A stretch of 64,000 nt of DNA from Candidatus Poribacteria bacterium (lineage in GTDB: Bacteria; Poribacteria; WGA-4E; WGA-3G), in contig CAXXLX010000001.1 of assembly GCA_963665235.2 (NCBI GenBank), positions 1,824,001 through 1,888,000 on the forward strand. The letters are read 5' to 3'. Under the pieces are notes generated by a model that had not been told where the DNA came from, ran no database searches, and was given only the letters and a program-made list of their open reading frames with translations. A program made the position numbers and the translations under genes. Positions 16,808 to 51,323 of this stretch are shown one piece after another. Each line of letters begins with the position of its first letter. Position 1 is the stretch's first letter.

Positions 16808-17968
16808 TCAAGCCACGAACTCACACCATACCGCGGGAACACCCATCGGTATACCGACTGGCATAATCTGAAGGTCTGTTGCATTTTCGACCGGTACATC
16901 AGCGGTTATCATTGAAAGATTGGCACGTGCCGCTGCTAAGTCATCGGCCTCGAGTGCGGCACTGAATTCTGCAATTGCAGCATCCCGTTTTCCTTGTTGA
17001 TAGTAGACAACTCCAAGATTGTTTCGCGCTTCAGCTAACGCGCCCGCCTTTTGGTAGGAAGCAATTGCCGCCGCAAGTCTATCTTGTCGGAAATGGACTA
17101 TACCGAGGTTGGTGTGTACCTCAGCAAAATCCGGTGCGATGCGGTGCACACGAGTTAGTATCACCTTCGCTTCATCAAGTCTATTTTGACAGATATACGC
17201 GAAACTGAGGTTGAGCTGCACCTCTACTGAATCCGGGGCCATATTTAATGCTTCCTTATGGAGCGCAATTGCCTCGTCATGTTTCTCTTGCCAACTGTAG
17301 AGCAATCCAAGGTTGGTATGCGGCTCTTCCCCACCATGAAGTTCAATTGATGTCTGAAAAGCCGAGGTTGCCTGTTCAAAGTCGCCTTGCAACAGATAGA
17401 CAAGTCCAAGGTTGTTGTACGGTTCCGCTAGGGTTGAATCGGTTTCAATTGCTTTTTTATAACATGCCACAGCTTCCTCTAATCGGCCTTGCCACGTGTA
17501 GATTAATCCGAGGTTAAGCTGTGCTTCTCCGCCATCACCGAGTCGAATCGCTTCCTTAGAGGCGGCTATCGCAGCGTCAAGCTCACCGCTGCAGATATAG
17601 ACGAACCCTAAATTGGTATGGGCTTCAGCAGAATTCGGATTGCGTTCTAGGGCTGCGTTAAGGGAGTGTAGGGCTGCATCGAGCTGCCCCTGCCAGGCGT
17701 AAACCACAGCTAAATTGGTATGAGGTGCTGAGAGACTGGAGTCCAGACGAGATGCTTTGAGATGCAAAGCGATTGCTTCATCTAATTCACCTGCCCAACA
17801 GTGCAGAACACCCAAATTGGTGTGTGGTGCTGCTAAATTGGGAGCAAGCTGAATCGCTTCAATTAAGGCAACTTGCGCTGCACCAAGCTGTCCCTGAGAG
17901 ACATGATGGCATGCCTGACGGTTCAGTTCTTGCGCGTGCTTGATATTCTCTGTCTTATTTTTTTTCAT
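16808..17968 (-). CDS. Tetratricopeptide repeat protein
   Basis: About 10 repeats of the HTNLG/NNLG..G.L.AA type; start MKKNK at the IS junction. Confidence 0.9.
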   Translation of the reverse strand: MKKNKTENIKHAQELNRQACHHVSQGQLGAAQVALIEAIQLAPNLAAPHTNLGVLHCWAGELDEAIALHLKASRLDSSLSAPHTNLAVVYAWQGQLDAALHSLNAALERNPNSAEAHTNLGFVYICSGELDAAIAASKEAIRLGDGGEAQLNLGLIYTWQGRLEEAVACYKKAIETDSTLAEPYNNLGLVYLLQGDFEQATSAFQTSIELHGGEEPHTNLGLLYSWQEKHDEAIALHKEALNMAPDSVEVQLNLSFAYICQNRLDEAKVILTRVHRIAPDFAEVHTNLGIVHFRQDRLAAAIASYQKAGALAEARNNLGVVYYQQGKRDAAIAEFSAALEADDLAAARANLSMITADVPVENATDLQIMPVGIPMGVPAVWCEFVA

Positions 17969-19230
17969 CAATCTTCGGTGTGGAGACCCCGTTGCTTTAG
18001 CACGGGGAGGAAACACCGCTCCTATATTGAAAGTTCAAGCGTGTTAGGACTTGAAAATCTGTGCGTTTCGCACCCGTTGTTAATCGGTGTCCATCTTTTG
18101 AATAGACAGAGAATAGTCCTTTAGCATTAACACCCGCAAGGCGTGTTAGTCCATATTTGTCGTGCTTTATCAATGTGTTTTTAACGAGTCCATCGCCTAA
18201 TAAGGTGCCACCATATCGCGGACGATTGCCACCTTTCTGCGGATTTTGTCTGTGGAGTTGTCGCCTGCGTATCGGTATCGGTGAGATACAGAATATATCG
18301 GTATTGTCGGGTATCTCTAAACCGCCCACGGTGTGATAGGCCAAGCACCAGCTATCAACGCAATGTGCCTCAAAGGTTTCAGCTAACTTCTTTGACGACT
18401 TGTTGAGACCCAGACGCTCGCGTATCTCTTTGGTTTCAAACCCTTGTAATGTCAGGAGTTTCCATCGCTTTTCTACCTCTGAATAGAACCAGTGCTTGCC
18501 GACTTCCAAAGGACTAAAAGCCTGATTCCACTGCTTTTGATACTGTTTTGTTTGCGCCTTAATGTCCTCAACACAGACGTGTGTAACAGGATAGAGGTTA
18601 GACAACCAATCTAATATGCGAAGTTTCCAATCCCATCTCGCACGTGTGCCTGCGGGAATACGCTTCCGGTTCGACAGGTTGTGATGCTTCTTTTTCCGAT
18701 TCGGACATTTCCGTGTGCGTCTGCCTCTCCGCAGCGTCCGCCGCTTTTCGATTTTCTTTCCAACCTTGTTGTGAGCGTCTGCTTGCACATTCAGGTAGGT
18801 ATGTGCCTCGCTTTTGACGGTAAAGCCTTCCTTCTTACTGCCAGGGTCTACGCCTACACATATCTCTTGGAAGTATCTATCCGAAGGAGCAGCGTTAAGG
18901 CGCACACAAAAAACGCCATTCTTCCAAAAGGGTGTCGCTTTCTTTTCTTGTATCCACTTCCTTGCCCGCGAAGGCTTTGTTGGCATCAGTGGATTTTGGT
19001 TTTTGTCAACGACAGGAACAAACATAGTTTGTAATTCTCCGTAGAGTTTGTATTTCCCCATCCAGATCGGTATATCAGCGTTTACATCGGACTTGGGGAG
19101 CATCCGAAACACCGTTGTGCACCACCACAGATATACCGATATATGACTGTAGTGAAGAACTTAATCTTTGACAGGGAACGTGTGGTTACGCTATGTCAAA
19201 GCACCCATGCTTTAGCAGGGTGATCTTTAC
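17969..19230 (-). mobile_element. Non-autonomous IS200/IS605-superfamily element encoding IsrB and omega-RNA
   Basis: Subterminal hairpins CACCCTGCTAAAGCATGGGTG (~19202-19222) and CCCCGTGCTAAAGCAACGGGG (~17987-18007); no tnpA; followed directly by ATGA. Confidence 0.8.
17997..19025 (-). CDS. isrB: IsrB RNA-guided nickase (RRXRR/PLMP domain, split RuvC, no HNH), 342 aa
   Basis: PLMPT, RuvC-I GVDPG, Arg-rich bridge helix RRTLRRGRRTRK, RuvC-II VEDIK, RuvC-III HCVD; no HNH motif. Confidence 0.85.
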   Translation of the reverse strand: MFVPVVDKNQNPLMPTKPSRARKWIQEKKATPFWKNGVFCVRLNAAPSDRYFQEICVGVDPGSKKEGFTVKSEAHTYLNVQADAHNKVGKKIEKRRTLRRGRRTRKCPNRKKKHHNLSNRKRIPAGTRARWDWKLRILDWLSNLYPVTHVCVEDIKAQTKQYQKQWNQAFSPLEVGKHWFYSEVEKRWKLLTLQGFETKEIRERLGLNKSSKKLAETFEAHCVDSWCLAYHTVGGLEIPDNTDIFCISPIPIRRRQLHRQNPQKGGNRPRYGGTLLGDGLVKNTLIKHDKYGLTRLAGVNAKGLFSVYSKDGHRLTTGAKRTDFQVLTRLNFQYRSGVSSPC

Positions 19231-19250
19231 TGTAACCTGACACTAATTAT
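19040..19250 (-). ncRNA. omega-RNA (HEARO-like) with 5' guide taken from flanking DNA
   Basis: Minus strand GTAAAGATCACCCTGCTAAAGCATGGGTG...GGATGCTCCCCAAGTCC...GATGGGGA with several stems (CTTTGACA/TGTCAAAG, ATCGGTATATC/GATATACCGAT) directly upstream of isrB. Confidence 0.75.
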
Positions 19251-19340
19251 CGCAAAACGATTGATACGCTTTTTCATTTCTATCTCTTGAAGGTGAAGTT
19301 TTTCTGTTGTGAAAATATGAACTTGAACAATACATCCTTA

Positions 19341-19369
19341 ATTTTAACACAATTTCTTTTTCAAGTCAA
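19341..19369 (-). promoter_or_regulatory. Sigma70 promoter reading into omega-RNA, isrB and the TPR operon
   Basis: TTGACT-N17-TAAAAT on the minus strand. Confidence 0.6.
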
Positions 19370-19531
19370 ACAAAATTCGGGAACAGAATGATTCTGATTT
19401 TTTCTTTGACACCTTTTCGGATTTATGTTACTATAGTTTACCTAAGTTGCCACATAGTAGCATAATCTTCCAGATTGTGCATATTTGTGTGCAAATTGGA
19501 AGTGAACGGGACAAATATTAGCTAATTATCA

Positions 19532-20227
19532 CTATAGTTTGGACAATTTCTGTGAGCCTGATGCCCGATTTTCAAAGCCTTTCTGATTTTTCTCAAAGTT
19601 TCTCACACAAGGACAAATAGTAGAAAATGGGCACAGTATTCGGGTAAGAAGTCCGCCTCTCCTGCGAAAACGCAGCCCCGTAGGGGCGGTATGTTTATAG
19701 AAGTCCACAACGAACCCACAAACTAGCCCCGTAGGGGCGGTATGTGTAAAGATGTCCTAGTCTTCCGCCGTGCCGAACATAAGCTTATGTTTTTAATTTG
19801 ACTTTTGCGGTCATGGTTGTAACCGCCACCAATGTTGAAGTTCCGAACCTCAACCTATGGTAGGGTTGTTTGATGTTCTGACCCATTACCATTTTTGTGC
19901 AATGCTTTGTATCCAAAAGACCCCATTGGATACCAAAGCACTGATTCACAAGCATAAAGAAGGTGCGAAGCACGAGGGCAATTGTCCTTTGAGTTAGGGG
20001 CAGTAAGACTTCAAGCATTGTTGACGTTCACACGTCTGAAAACCACAATAATAGCTAACGCGTAGCGGAACGCCCTCTTTGCTGGGAGAGTATGTCAAGA
20101 ATTACCGAGTGAACCCCTAAAGTCATAATCACAAAACCGCGCATCTTAAACTCCGCGCCCTCTGCGTTCTCATCCGCGATTCAGACAACACCGCAAATGC
20201 AAACTCATAAAATTGTCCAAAGTTTAG
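19532..20227. mobile_element. Degenerate composite MITE containing a REP pair and an IS605-like right-end remnant
   Basis: Ends CTATAGTTTGGACAATTT / AAATTGTCCAAAGTTTAG; two AGCCCCGTAGGGGCGGTATGT cores (~19674, ~19725); GGGAGAGTATGTCAA at 20084-20098. Confidence 0.45.
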
Positions 20228-48414: not shown

Positions 48415-51067
48415 TTCCTGATTCGGTGAGCATTGCTAAGCTCCGGGCTAACTTTTGCTGTTCAGCCTGGAGTCGTTCTAGCTGTGCTCGCTTTTGGTTG
48501 ACAACTTTTTCTGGGGCTCGCTCAATGAAGTTTGGGTTCTCCAATGCTTTCTTCGCTGCCGCTACATCCTTGGCTGCCTTTTGATGCCGTTTCGTTAGCC
48601 GCGCTGTTTCCGCTTCAAGGTCGATAACCCCTGATAGTGGTACATATATCGCAAGTTCGCCTATGACAGCCTCTGCTGAAGCGGCGGGTTTCGGCAAAGA
48701 TTCGGCGATAGTGATTTTCTCCACGCGCGTAAAAGCCGGTAAGTACTGCTCGAGATAGGTTTCAAGCCGATTTCGAATCTCAGCATCTGGTGCTTGAATG
48801 TGAACCTCCACGGATGCACCGATTGGAACGTTCAGCTCGCCACGGATACTTCTAATATTCTCAATAACTCCCATAACAGTTGCCATTGCGGCTTCTGCTG
48901 TGGGATTCTCTCCTGTTGGTTTCGGCCACGGGGCGACGGTCACGGAGCCGTTATCCTCAGGAAGAGCACGTCGGTGTGGCAGTTGTTGCCAAATTTCCTC
49001 TGTTAAAAACGGCATAATTGGATGTAGCAGCCGCAGTGTCTGTTCCAAAACATCCGCTGCAACCCACAACGTTTTTGGTGTGTCTTTTGTAAGACGTTGT
49101 TTGGCAAATTCCAGGTACCAATCACAGAATTCGTGCCAGAGAAACGCATAGAGGGTTTGTGCGGCTTCGTGGAAACGGAAGTTTTCCAGGGCATCAGTTG
49201 TTGTTTTTATTGTGTGGCTCAAACGGCTGCGTATCCATTCAACCTCTAACGGCACTTGTTCCTCTTCTGTCCCTTCATCTTCGCTAATGGGATGCTTCTC
49301 CAAGTTCATAAGGATAAATCGCGCAGCGTTCCACACCTTATTTGCGAACCTTCTCCCCGCCTCAATCTGTGATTCGGGGAGCGGCAGATATGGGTTCGGG
49401 GTGCTTACGTTTATGAGTGCAAATCGGAATGCATCTGCGCCGTAGGCATCAATTGTCTCGAGCGGGTCAATGGTATTGCCTTTCGATTTGCTCATCTTTT
49501 GTCCCTTTTCATCGACAACAAGGCCGTGGAGGTAGACGGTATGGAACGGTACTTCGTCCATACATGCAAGTCCCAACATTATCATCCGGGCAACCCAGAA
49601 AAAGAGAATATCCCATCCCGTGACAAGTACAGATGTCGGATAAAAGGTTTCTAGGTCTGCTGTTTTGTCCGGCCATCCCATCGTAGAAAAGGGCCAAAGT
49701 CCGGAGCTGAACCATGTGTCAAGAACGTCCTCTTCCTGCCGAAAGTCGGTCGCGCCACATTCACACTGCGCGGGCGTATCCGTTGCAGCGGTGGGTTTTT
49801 CACAGGTATTGCAGTACCATATTGGCAGTCGGTGTCCCCACCAACGTTGGCGTGAAATCGGCCACGGTTCGATATTTTCCATCCAATGAAAAAAGCGGGC
49901 GGTCTCGCGTTCGGGGATAAATACAACCTCCCCTTTTTTAGTAGCTTCCATCGCCTGTTCAGCAAGCGGACGTACATTCATGAACCATTGCGGCGATATT
50001 GCCGGTTCGACTATTGTGTCACATCTATCATGATGCCCGACAGCATGTTTATGTGGCACAATTTTGACCAGATATCCCGCCTCTTTCAAATCTGTGACTA
50101 CCTGTTCTCGGCACGCCCATCGGGTTAATCCGACATATTTTTCACCTGCTGCATCGTTTATGTGTCCATCGGGTGTGAAAATCGTACGTTGTTCAAGATT
50201 ATGCCGCAAACCGATTTCGTAATCGTTGACATCGTGTGCGGGCGTAACCTTCAACGCTCCCGTTCCAAATTCGGAATCCACGTAAGCATCTGCAATTATC
50301 GGAATTTCTCTGTTATGAAGCGGAAGCATCGCTTTTTTGCCAATCAGGTGCTGGTAACGTTCATCCTCTGGATGCACAGCGACTGCCGTGTCGCCTAGCA
50401 TTGTTTCGGGCCGTGTCGTTGCAATTTCAAGGACTCTATCGGTGTCTATAACAGGATAGTGGATGTGATAGAAGTTGCCATCAATCTCAATCGGTTCGAC
50501 CTCCAGATTACTTACGGCCGTGTTGCATTGTGGGCACCAATTCACCATATAGGTATCGCGATAGATAAGTCCTTGATTGTAGAGTTGAACGAACGCGGTT
50601 CGCACCGCTTTAGACCGCTCCTCATCAAGGGTAAAACGTTCCCGTGTCCAATCACAAGAGCTTCCTATTTTTTGAAGCTGCTCGACAATGTACTCCGCGG
50701 ACTCCGCTTTCCACTGCCACATACGTTCAATAAATTTTTCGCGGCCGACCGTCTCTTTACTACTACCCTCCTCGGCGAGTTTTCGTTCCATGATGAGCTC
50801 TGTGACGATGCCAGCGTGGTCGGTGCCGGGTAGCCAGAGCACGTTGTATCCTTGCATGCGTCGCCATCGGATGAGGCAGTCTTGAAGCGTGTTATTTAAT
50901 GCGTGCCCGATGTGCAAGCTGCCCGTGATGTTCGGTGGCGGGATTACAATTGTGTAAGACGTTTTGTTATCAGGTGCCTTGGCGAGAAAGTAGTCACCTT
51001 TTAGCCAGGATTCGTAACGTTTTTTCTCAATATCCTGAGGTGCATAAATTTTCGGGAGATTTGTATC
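48398..51067 (-). CDS. valS: Valine--tRNA ligase (start codon defective in this sequence)
   Basis: PPPNITGSLHIGH, GTDHAGI, KMSKS, C-terminal coiled coil; frame is open upstream of 50917 to TNLPKIYAPQDIE, with no in-frame ATG/GTG/TTG before a TAG. Confidence 0.95.
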   Translation of the reverse strand, partial: DTNLPKIYAPQDIEKKRYESWLKGDYFLAKAPDNKTSYTIVIPPPNITGSLHIGHALNNTLQDCLIRWRRMQGYNVLWLPGTDHAGIVTELIMERKLAEEGSSKETVGREKFIERMWQWKAESAEYIVEQLQKIGSSCDWTRERFTLDEERSKAVRTAFVQLYNQGLIYRDTYMVNWCPQCNTAVSNLEVEPIEIDGNFYHIHYPVIDTDRVLEIATTRPETMLGDTAVAVHPEDERYQHLIGKKAMLPLHNREIPIIADAYVDSEFGTGALKVTPAHDVNDYEIGLRHNLEQRTIFTPDGHINDAAGEKYVGLTRWACREQVVTDLKEAGYLVKIVPHKHAVGHHDRCDTIVEPAISPQWFMNVRPLAEQAMEATKKGEVVFIPERETARFFHWMENIEPWPISRQRWWGHRLPIWYCNTCEKPTAATDTPAQCECGATDFRQEEDVLDTWFSSGLWPFSTMGWPDKTADLETFYPTSVLVTGWDILFFWVARMIMLGLACMDEVPFHTVYLHGLVVDEKGQKMSKSKGNTIDPLETIDAYGADAFRFALINVSTPNPYLPLPESQIEAGRRFANKVWNAARFILMNLEKHPISEDEGTEEEQVPLEVEWIRSRLSHTIKTTTDALENFRFHEAAQTLYAFLWHEFCDWYLEFAKQRLTKDTPKTLWVAADVLEQTLRLLHPIMPFLTEEIWQQLPHRRALPEDNGSVTVAPWPKPTGENPTAEAAMATVMGVIENIRSIRGELNVPIGASVEVHIQAPDAEIRNRLETYLEQYLPAFTRVEKITIAESLPKPAASAEAVIGELAIYVPLSGVIDLEAETARLTKRHQKAAKDVAAAKKALENPNFIERAPEKVVNQKRAQLERLQAEQQKLARSLAMLTESGSENGN

Positions 51068-51260
51068 AAAATATTCGGTGTGGAGACCCCCAGCATTTAT
51101 GCGGGGGAGGAAACACCGCTCCTATATTGAAAGTTCAAGCGTGTCGTTGTCCATCTTTTGAATGCAGAGAATAGTCCTTCATTAACACCCGCAAGGCGTG
51201 TTAGTCCGTATTTGTCGTGCTTTATCAATGTGTTTTTAACAAGTCCATCGCCTAATAAGG
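51068..51260 (-). mobile_element. Truncated remnant of the isrB element (3' end of isrB and right end)
   Basis: Near-identical to ~17975-18205 (TCGGTGTGGAGACCCC..GGGGAGGAAACACCGCTCCTATATTGAAAGTTCAAGCGTGT..GTCCATCGCCTAATAAGG) with internal deletions. Confidence 0.85.
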
Positions 51261-51323
51261 TTTAAAATCGTAGGTCATGAGGTGTACCACAAATTGACAG
51301 TTTGTGGTACAGTGAAACAGATG

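Follow-up and report, generated by a model that had tools for sequence, protein, structure and literature searches.

An intact and probably mobile IsrB transposon with a predicted omega-RNA at a host start codon in a Candidatus Poribacteria genome

A 64,000-nucleotide stretch of a Candidatus Poribacteria genome (assembly GCA_963665235.2, contig CAXXLX010000001.1, positions 1,824,001 to 1,888,000; hereafter, the window) holds a RuvC-type gene on the reverse strand, behind a structured upstream region. Is this a complete OMEGA system, that is, an RNA-guided nickase with its omega-RNA, and does it lie in a transposon that can still move? An earlier note, made from the sequence alone, had proposed an intact IsrB system. 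We conclude that positions 17969-19230 (reverse strand) are very likely an intact 1,262-bp non-autonomous transposon of the IS200/IS605 type (ISC1 group) that carries an OMEGA system and is probably still mobile. The element is an ordinary, well-formed member of the known IsrB/ISC1 kind. Its features are collected in Table 1.

The protein is IsrB. Proteins of this kind are compact RNA-guided DNA nickases with kinship to the ancestor of Cas9. The earlier note had described a 342-amino-acid protein with a PLMP motif, candidate catalytic residues D, E, and H/D, and no HNH domain, and all of this held up. The PLMP motif is at residues 12-15; GVDPG holds D60, VEDIK holds E153, and HCVD holds H221 and D224. 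The sole Pfam domain is RRXRR (PF14239, E = 2.3e-33, residues 3-164), no HNH family is among the Pfam matches at E <= 1, and the gap from E153 to H221 is only 67 residues. The profile comparison that the earlier note had suggested was favorable for RRXRR and fell short for the NCBIfam model guided_IscB, which covers only the N-terminal half of the protein (residues 5-164) and scores 94 bits against a cut-off of 175. We also considered an IscB with a decayed HNH domain, and we rejected it because the Pfam and NCBIfam searches contained no trace of HNH.

Both sequence and predicted fold point to the same closest structure. In a sequence search of PDB, IsrB from Desulfovirgula thermocuniculi (DtIsrB, 8dmb_P) ranks first (E = 4.2e-36, residues 3-294), with IscB chains far behind. 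An AlphaFold model built on 45 aligned homologs (pLDDT 87, pTM 0.84) also has 8dmb_P as its best Foldseek match (TM 0.78/0.81, E = 3e-27, 350 columns), followed by IscB structures and then by RuvC. The alignment to 8dmb_P spans the whole length. In the model, residues 1-43 (the PLMP domain) form beta-strands and a helix with pLDDT of 88-96, and an arginine-rich bridge helix follows RuvC-I at residues 88-106 (the KRRTLRRGRRTRK region). D60, E153, H221, and D224 align with AVDPG, TEDV, and HAND of DtIsrB; we take them to be the catalytic residues by homology with Cas9 and RuvC. These four residues are retained in all 19 full-length copies in this genome and are invariant or at least 90% conserved in the 45-sequence alignment, which reaches down to 30% identity. 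R95, R99, R102, R103, and R105 of the bridge helix are also at least 90% conserved in that alignment.

To find the limits of the element, we searched the region against the whole genome with BLAST and inspected the ends of the copies. About 25 elements start with GTAAAG... or GTCAAT... and end with ...CCGAAGA(0-2 nt)TTGATGA, and their flanks are unrelated. Conservation starts abruptly at the 5' end in every copy, which is position 19230 (GTAAAG...) for the window copy, and the conserved 3' motif, ...CCGAAGATTG/ATGA (in motifs at element ends, the slash is the junction with the host), ends at 17965. The 3' junction before ATGA is fixed by the start codons of host genes, by the spacing of ribosome-binding motifs, and by a linker that varies in relatives. 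The flanks show no target duplication and are unique to each copy in the genome. The element has the traits of the ISC1 group: its subterminal hairpins are imperfect, it lacks terminal inverted repeats and a target-site duplication, and it has a fixed 4-nt target on one side. The hairpins that the earlier note had seen at both element ends are there; the left-end hairpin is kept in 28 element ends of this genome, and the right-end hairpin is helix 2 of the 59-pair RNA structure described below, in which 6 of its 8 pairs change on both sides. Overall, the genome has 31 matches to the IsrB protein; 19 are full-length and uninterrupted, and the rest include fragments and copies with stops. A twin of the window element lies before leuC and is 99.6% identical over 1,274 bp. 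Such a close twin at another locus shows that movement was recent.

All 28 of the element ends in the genome read TTG/ATGA. We assign TTG to the element and ATGA to the host because the host ATG is residue 1 of the downstream proteins, because ribosome-binding motifs are spaced 5-9 nt away, because the linkers of relatives vary, and because of the starts of the S10 and L36 genes. The spacing is that of ribosome-binding-like motifs ahead of the junction in the 5' flanks of the genome's own copies. As for relatives, we examined 80 loci from other genomes and dropped 8 that had no recognizable left-end motif or RTGA. The 72 parsed loci have ATGA (69) or GTGA (3), and the linker before it is gtg in 30, ttag in 16, ttttg in 10, ttg in 8, and something else in 8. 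The original HEARO paper (Nature, 2009) is said to have placed insertions next to ATGA or GTGA. We rejected TTGATGA as a 7-nt target-adjacent motif (TAM), as the linker varies among subfamilies and counting TTG would shift the ribosome-binding spacing to 8-12 nt. DtIsrB has an NTGA TAM (PMC9581776), and N/ATGA targets and 5'-GT termini are established for ISC1 and ISC2 elements, including ISC1-1_MA, which inserts at N/ATGA (Kapitonov 2016, PMC4810608).

The putative guide would be the flank just outside the right end of the element. The 200 nt on that side (window 19231-19430) are single-copy in the genome, and the guide length of 20 nt is taken by analogy with DtIsrB (PMC9581776). The earlier note had put the guide at 19250-19231 and the TAM at about ATGA, and the comparison of copies bears out both positions, with the roles themselves still putative; its outer limits, 17969 and 19250, coincide exactly with the element's last base and with the 5' end that a 20-nt guide would have. 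In two assembled contigs (X1 record 3 and X5 record 10), the fit breaks off exactly at 17968; the one from X5 runs on for 28 letters that do not match the element. This gives only a hint that the junction is at 17968/17969. Separately, a sister IsrB subfamily (relatives' loci L045, L046, and L050; 64-65% identical) ends with ...GCGAAGATTAG/ATAA instead of ATGA, and its C-terminal (TAM-side) sequence differs. This may be a natural TAM switch.

Upstream of isrB, the 205 nt from the element end (19230) to the ATG (19025) match the Rfam family HEARO (RF02033) across the full model (positions 1-211; match at 19050-19230). This agrees with the claim in the earlier note of about 200 nt of structured RNA with the GGATGCTCCCCAAGTCC motif. 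We aligned 20 copies (the window copy, 6 others from its genome, and 13 from related genomes). RNAalifold predicted 37 pairs, 16 of them with a compensatory change. We also wrote a second structure with 59 pairs, among them those of a pseudoknot and of a terminal hairpin that spans the start codon. In this structure, 83.9% of cells pair, as compared to at most 42.8% with slid partners; 26 of the 59 pairs change on both sides; and none of 500 shuffles reached the observed values. The predicted structure is thus supported by covariation. For helices 7 and 8 (the GGATGCTCCCCAAGTCC hairpin and the pseudoknot), the share of paired cells is 100% and 98%, and covariation is seen at one pair of the pseudoknot (AU in 13 sequences and UA in 7). 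Helices 32-39/62-69 and 41-45/54-58 pair in only 51-55% of cells, which may be due in part to subfamilies being aligned in shifted registers. HEARO P1 was rejected as a universal helix: it pairs in 81% of cells and is missing in several relatives. The terminal hairpin, ACAAAC/GTTTGT, encloses the ATG of isrB. Given the conserved start at 19230 and the unique flanks, the omega-RNA overlaps the transposon's right end and the guide position lies outside that end.

A promoter-like site about 100 nt upstream of the guide is a candidate source of the transcript for the omega-RNA and isrB. Contigs from a metatranscriptome (X7) cover 18031-18080, 18115-18659, 18813-18869, and 19136-19230 at 93-99% identity, with a depth of 171 for 19136-19230 versus about 10 for the pieces in the open reading frame (ORF). 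These contigs may stem from a relative's copy, and DNA carry-over is possible, so they are not evidence that the window copy is expressed.

Which transposase could move the element? There are 13 Y1_Tnp matches in the genome, none of them within the element. Three near-identical IS605 elements encode TnpA and TnpB, and their left end (TTAT/CAAGTCTTCCG... and then a hairpin) and right end (a hairpin ...TCTATCAC) are homologous to the ends of the IsrB elements. Their nuclease gene is on the opposite strand relative to the IsrB elements. At least four TnpA-bearing elements in this genome carry matching hairpins. Judging from their ends, the TnpA-TnpB elements could supply transposase in trans. Kapitonov et al. 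(PMC4810608) describe ISC ends that are shared with IS605 elements whose tnpB is on the opposite strand. The three TnpA-TnpB elements also carry a near-consensus promoter (TTGACA...TATAAT).

Table 1. Positions of the element, its parts, and related features (unprefixed positions refer to the window; C1 and C2 positions refer to the genome)
Feature	Position	Strand	Description and basis
Whole non-autonomous ISC1 element	17969..19230	-	Limits of similarity among about 25 copies in the genome; flanks differ per copy
isrB ORF, 342 aa + stop	17997..19025	-	ORF, Pfam, PDB sequence search, AlphaFold model, comparison of copies
Omega-RNA scaffold (predicted), ~213 nt	19018..19230	-	205 nt to ATG + terminal hairpin over start codon; HEARO match, covariation
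GGATGCTCCCCAAGTCC motif	19089..19105	-	Hairpin; CCCCA loop pairs with downstream TGGGG (pseudoknot)
Right-end subterminal hairpin	19202..19222	-	Stem CACCC/GGGTG, loop with GCTAAAGC; inside 5' region of omega-RNA
Left-end subterminal hairpin	17987..18007	-	CCCCG/CGGGG, same loop as right-end hairpin (GCTAAAGC); IsrB stop TAA in loop
Putative 20-nt guide	19231..19250	-	Host 5' untranslated region just outside right end; flank unique per copy
ATGA, target and putative TAM	17965..17968	-	Constant while preceding linker varies; ATG opens downstream host ORF
Host TPR-repeat gene, 386 aa	16808..17968	-	Starts at the ATG of the TAM
Promoter-like site	19341..19369	-	TTGACT, 17 nt, TAAAAT, with TG; 10/12 consensus matches
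IS605 elements, TnpA (137 aa) + TnpB (368 aa)	C1:3153161-3154785, C2:338566-340190, C1:31494-33122		Three, near-identical
ORF-less mini-elements	C1:337433-337905, C1:504553-505006, C1:19462-19942, C1:680873-681345, C1:1154421-1154882, C1:1888070-1888563		

In this genome, we observe the protein family, a conserved structured RNA, the element ends, the ATGA target, multiple copies of recent origin, and candidate donors of TnpA whose ends are homologous. How the element would work can be proposed from related systems: we infer omega-RNA processing, guide length, nicking, and homing by homology, and we infer expression, TAM use, and excision as well. Transcription would start outside the element in the host 5' region, perhaps at the candidate promoter (19369-19341), and the transcript would run across some 20 nt of flanking sequence (the guide), the scaffold of about 213 nt (which is the right end), isrB, the left end, and the host TPR gene. 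The omega-RNA would be bound by IsrB. A Y1 TnpA, acting in trans, would excise the element as single-stranded DNA and reseal the flanks, which joins the match to the guide with ATGA. IsrB with its omega-RNA would then recognize this empty site, with ATGA as the TAM, and nick the non-target strand, and recombination with a sister copy would restore the element. Restorative homing is demonstrated for TnpB and IscB, and the available part of PMC13565253 does not list it for IsrB.

Several points weigh against an intact and mobile OMEGA element. The HEARO match scores 25.3 bits (E = 0.019), far under Rfam's gathering score of 83. None of 16 copies in the genome reaches that score (the best has 35 bits), and by Rfam's threshold the upstream RNA is not a HEARO member. 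The covariance-model comparison suggested in the earlier note therefore gave a full-length match with a sub-threshold score. Meers et al. used a working threshold of 15 bits for omega-RNAs upstream of iscB (10.1101/2023.03.14.532601), and 25.3 bits is above this. Also, the candidate promoter gives a leader of about 100 nt, so an additional 5' processing step would be needed. There is no TnpA inside the element, and the TnpA-TnpB elements are flanked by TTAT (ATAA in the IsrB sense), not by TCAT/ATGA. Because of these TTAT flanks, mobilization in trans rests on the IS608 rule, by which the target is read by the element's own end and not by the protein. We found no empty-site allele: the 20-nt guide has no exact match in metagenome contigs (a set that may omit near-identical records), and none of the contigs from four public runs bridged the element. 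Finally, the available part of PMC13565253 gives no demonstration for IsrB of homing that follows a nick rather than a double-strand break.

Some of these points would also be expected if the copy were structurally intact but stranded, either because no TnpA reads its TCAT-flanked left end or because IsrB is inactive, so that the element is a fixed passenger in the leader of the TPR gene. The lack of a TnpA, the use of TTAT rather than TCAT by the elements with homologous ends, and the decayed copies (fragments, copies with stops, and the remnant at 51068-51262) all fit with this. However, the 99.6% identical twin indicates very recent movement, at least four TnpA-bearing elements have matching hairpins, and, despite a divergence of 66-100%, none of the 19 full-length copies has lost a catalytic residue or its open frame, which indicates that the protein is under selection. 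We consider a stranded copy to be improbable.

It is less probable still, and by a good deal, that IsrB and its RNA, instead of maintaining the transposon, were recruited to serve the host, for example by RNA-guided control of the downstream gene in the manner of nuclease-dead TnpB-derived regulators. Copies do lie in the same orientation exactly between the ribosome-binding region and the start codon, including at the single-copy genes leuC, argJ, and murJ, and the guide would be the translation-initiation region. However, the ATG within ATGA accounts for this placement on its own, the catalytic residues and both transposon ends are intact, there are many recent copies at unrelated genes, and once the element is inserted, the guide sequence is no longer beside the TAM, so that the filled locus is not a target. 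The structured region might instead be chiefly a cis-acting leader that controls the translation of isrB, as the terminal hairpin encloses the ATG and the PLMP domain contacts the Shine-Dalgarno region according to Hirano et al. (PMC9581776). But the same scaffold occurs in ORF-less mini-elements with no isrB to regulate, the match to the HEARO/omega-RNA model is end to end, and the roles of leader and guide are compatible, so we give this explanation almost no weight. An intact transposon that is probably still mobile accounts best for the locus.

Since the ATG of ATGA starts the ORF of the TPR protein, the element separates the ribosome-binding region of that gene from its start codon. Sister copies are placed in the same way before leuC, argJ, and murJ, and in other Poribacteria before rpsJ and rpmJ. 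The ATG is profile position 1 of the downstream proteins LeuC (1-465 on 1-466/466), ArgJ, MurJ, and two_anch (1-77 on 1-77/82), and at two loci in relatives, where complete genes for S10 and L36 follow the element, it is likewise residue 1. In the docked genes, the element displaces the ribosome-binding region by 1.26 kb from the start codon. The 3' end of the 16S rRNA carries the usual anti-Shine-Dalgarno sequence, and leuC, argJ, and murJ are single-copy in this genome, which raises the question of how these genes get translated.

How often does this happen? The ATG opens an ORF of at least 60 codons at 17 of the 28 element ends (at least 100 codons at 16). The control rates are 26% of 4,075 sampled ATGA sites (18% for at least 100 codons) and 21% of 1,633 TTGATGA sites, and binomial tests of the excess over these controls give p = 1e-4 and 4e-6. 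Among the 72 loci from other genomes, the frame that begins at the ATG stays open as far as the fetched sequence reaches (at least about 116 codons) in 31 (p = 2e-7 against 0.17). The effect is overstated by these tests, as related genomes do not contribute independent copies and some of the flanks occur more than once.

We also compared some docked genes to their counterparts without an element. The leuC genes of relatives align from the same ATG in most of the genomes listed, and three relatives' leuC loci that we read (of five examined, found by pattern) have ATGA there and no element. Across 40 genomes of the family, there is no conservation of the 5' flank that the leuC copy has, so only the position of the start codon can be compared. 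In the window's own genome, rpsJ starts with ATGG, hence there is no target, and its upstream region is unlike the relative's flank. The start of rpmJ is an unfilled ...AAGGAAAATT/ATGA site, although the short A-rich match in this comparison is weak. A tandem array upstream of rpmJ (C2:46560-47170), with about 15 copies of a unit of about 40 nt (CACAAACTGGAAGTTTATGCTAC...), fills the spacer after the end of the preceding gene.

Is docking at start codons a strategy that this Poribacteria IsrB family evolved, or a mere by-product of targeting ATGA? We lean toward a by-product and put forward the former as a speculative proposal. If docking did evolve as a strategy, then the element would borrow a host promoter for its omega-RNA, and the guide would be the host gene's own translation-initiation region. 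The stop codon of isrB, in the hairpin loop about 28 nt before the host ATG and behind the invariant CCGAAGA, would keep essential downstream genes translated by coupling or re-initiation, among them murJ, leuC, and argJ in this genome and rpsJ and rpmJ in its relatives. The element could then occupy sites where the loss of expression would be lethal. Our literature searches found no printed statement on start-codon docking by IsrB: "start codon" and "ATGA" have no occurrences in a 2026 review (PMC13565253), "start codon" has none in the main text of PMC4810608, and HEARO is not mentioned in PMC2864571.

Among known systems, DtIsrB (8DMB; Hirano et al. 2022, PMC9581776) shares with the window protein the PLMP domain, a split RuvC with a bridge helix, a short linker in place of HNH, and a C-terminal TAM-interacting domain. 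It also has an NTGA-type TAM, a guide at the 5' end of the omega-RNA, and a scaffold that ends in a start-codon hairpin. However, the two proteins are only 29% identical in the structural alignment, the DtIsrB scaffold is 262 nt as compared to about 213 nt here, and we mapped no equivalents of its TAM-reading residues, R323 and Q326, on the window protein. HEARO (RF02033) matches across the full model starting exactly at the transposon end and has the conserved GGAUGC...AGUCC hairpin, but its central region is 46 nt as compared to 3 nt here. As a whole, the element resembles ISC1-1_MA from Microcystis aeruginosa (PMC4810608): both are non-autonomous, encode IscB1 (that is, IsrB), have a 5'-GT terminus and subterminal hairpins, make no target duplication, and insert at N/ATGA. 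ISC1-1_MA also has ends in common with IS605 elements with opposite-strand tnpB and is mobilized in trans by a Y1 TnpA. It is from another phylum and has four copies, versus 19 intact copies here.

The IscB and TnpB elements of Geobacillus stearothermophilus (10.1101/2023.03.14.532601) are similar in that the guide lies beyond the right end, which requires transcription to begin in flanking host DNA. Meers et al. report that IscB elements share the orientation of the genes upstream, since a transcript that includes the guide has to start outside the element. Other likenesses are this orientation bias, a TAM that is the same as the transposase target, and ORF-less relatives of the PATE type. 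Those nucleases make double-strand breaks at AT-rich TAMs, whereas IsrB only nicks, and the available part of that study does not show nick-based homing.

The genome also has ORF-less mini-elements of 450-500 bp, in which the omega-RNA end of the IsrB element is retained along with its far end. One of them (C1:1888070-1888563) is about 70 nt past the window end. Several are also at start codons: ORFs of 270, 231, and 453 aa open at their ATGA. Within the window, a 5'-truncated IsrB remnant at 51068-51262 (reverse strand) retains the last ~60 codons and the left-end hairpin and lies directly before a valS-like gene. It ends with TTTTGATAC and not with ...TTGATGA, so the expected ATG is missing, and the ValRS frame after it has no ATG, GTG, or TTG before the codon at 50917, which already lies within the region of the HIGH motif. 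Small high-copy repeats occupy 19431-19760, immediately upstream of the unique flank on the guide side. They include a unit of about 100 nt at 19440-19540, for which BLAST gives about 75-138 hits in the genome, and hairpins of the form GCCCC-TAC-GGGGC at 19675-19687 and 19726-19738. Another IsrB copy (C1:3830050) abuts a similar ...AATTGTCCAAACTATAGT... word.

Among cluster representatives, 1,317 match IsrB at E <= 0.001 and 177 at E <= 1e-30, and the nearest full-length representative outside its own cluster is 56% identical. The earlier note had placed this nickase in a poorly sampled lineage, which does not hold for this family: copies are present in 12 of 18 same-family genomes that we searched, and 79 of the 80 closest loci in the genome collection are titled Poribacteria. 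The lineage is uncultivated, yet it is well sampled for this element. Nothing here alters the current understanding of IsrB/ISC1-type systems. The locus adds one more compact nickase candidate with a defined omega-RNA, guide position, and putative ATGA TAM, which is sufficient for a test construct. Furthermore, the genome offers a natural series: 19 intact copies that fall into several subfamilies, mini-elements with the omega-RNA but no ORF, and TnpA-TnpB elements that have the same ends. Such a series would lend itself to studies of mobilization in trans and of the way in which a nick-only element is maintained.

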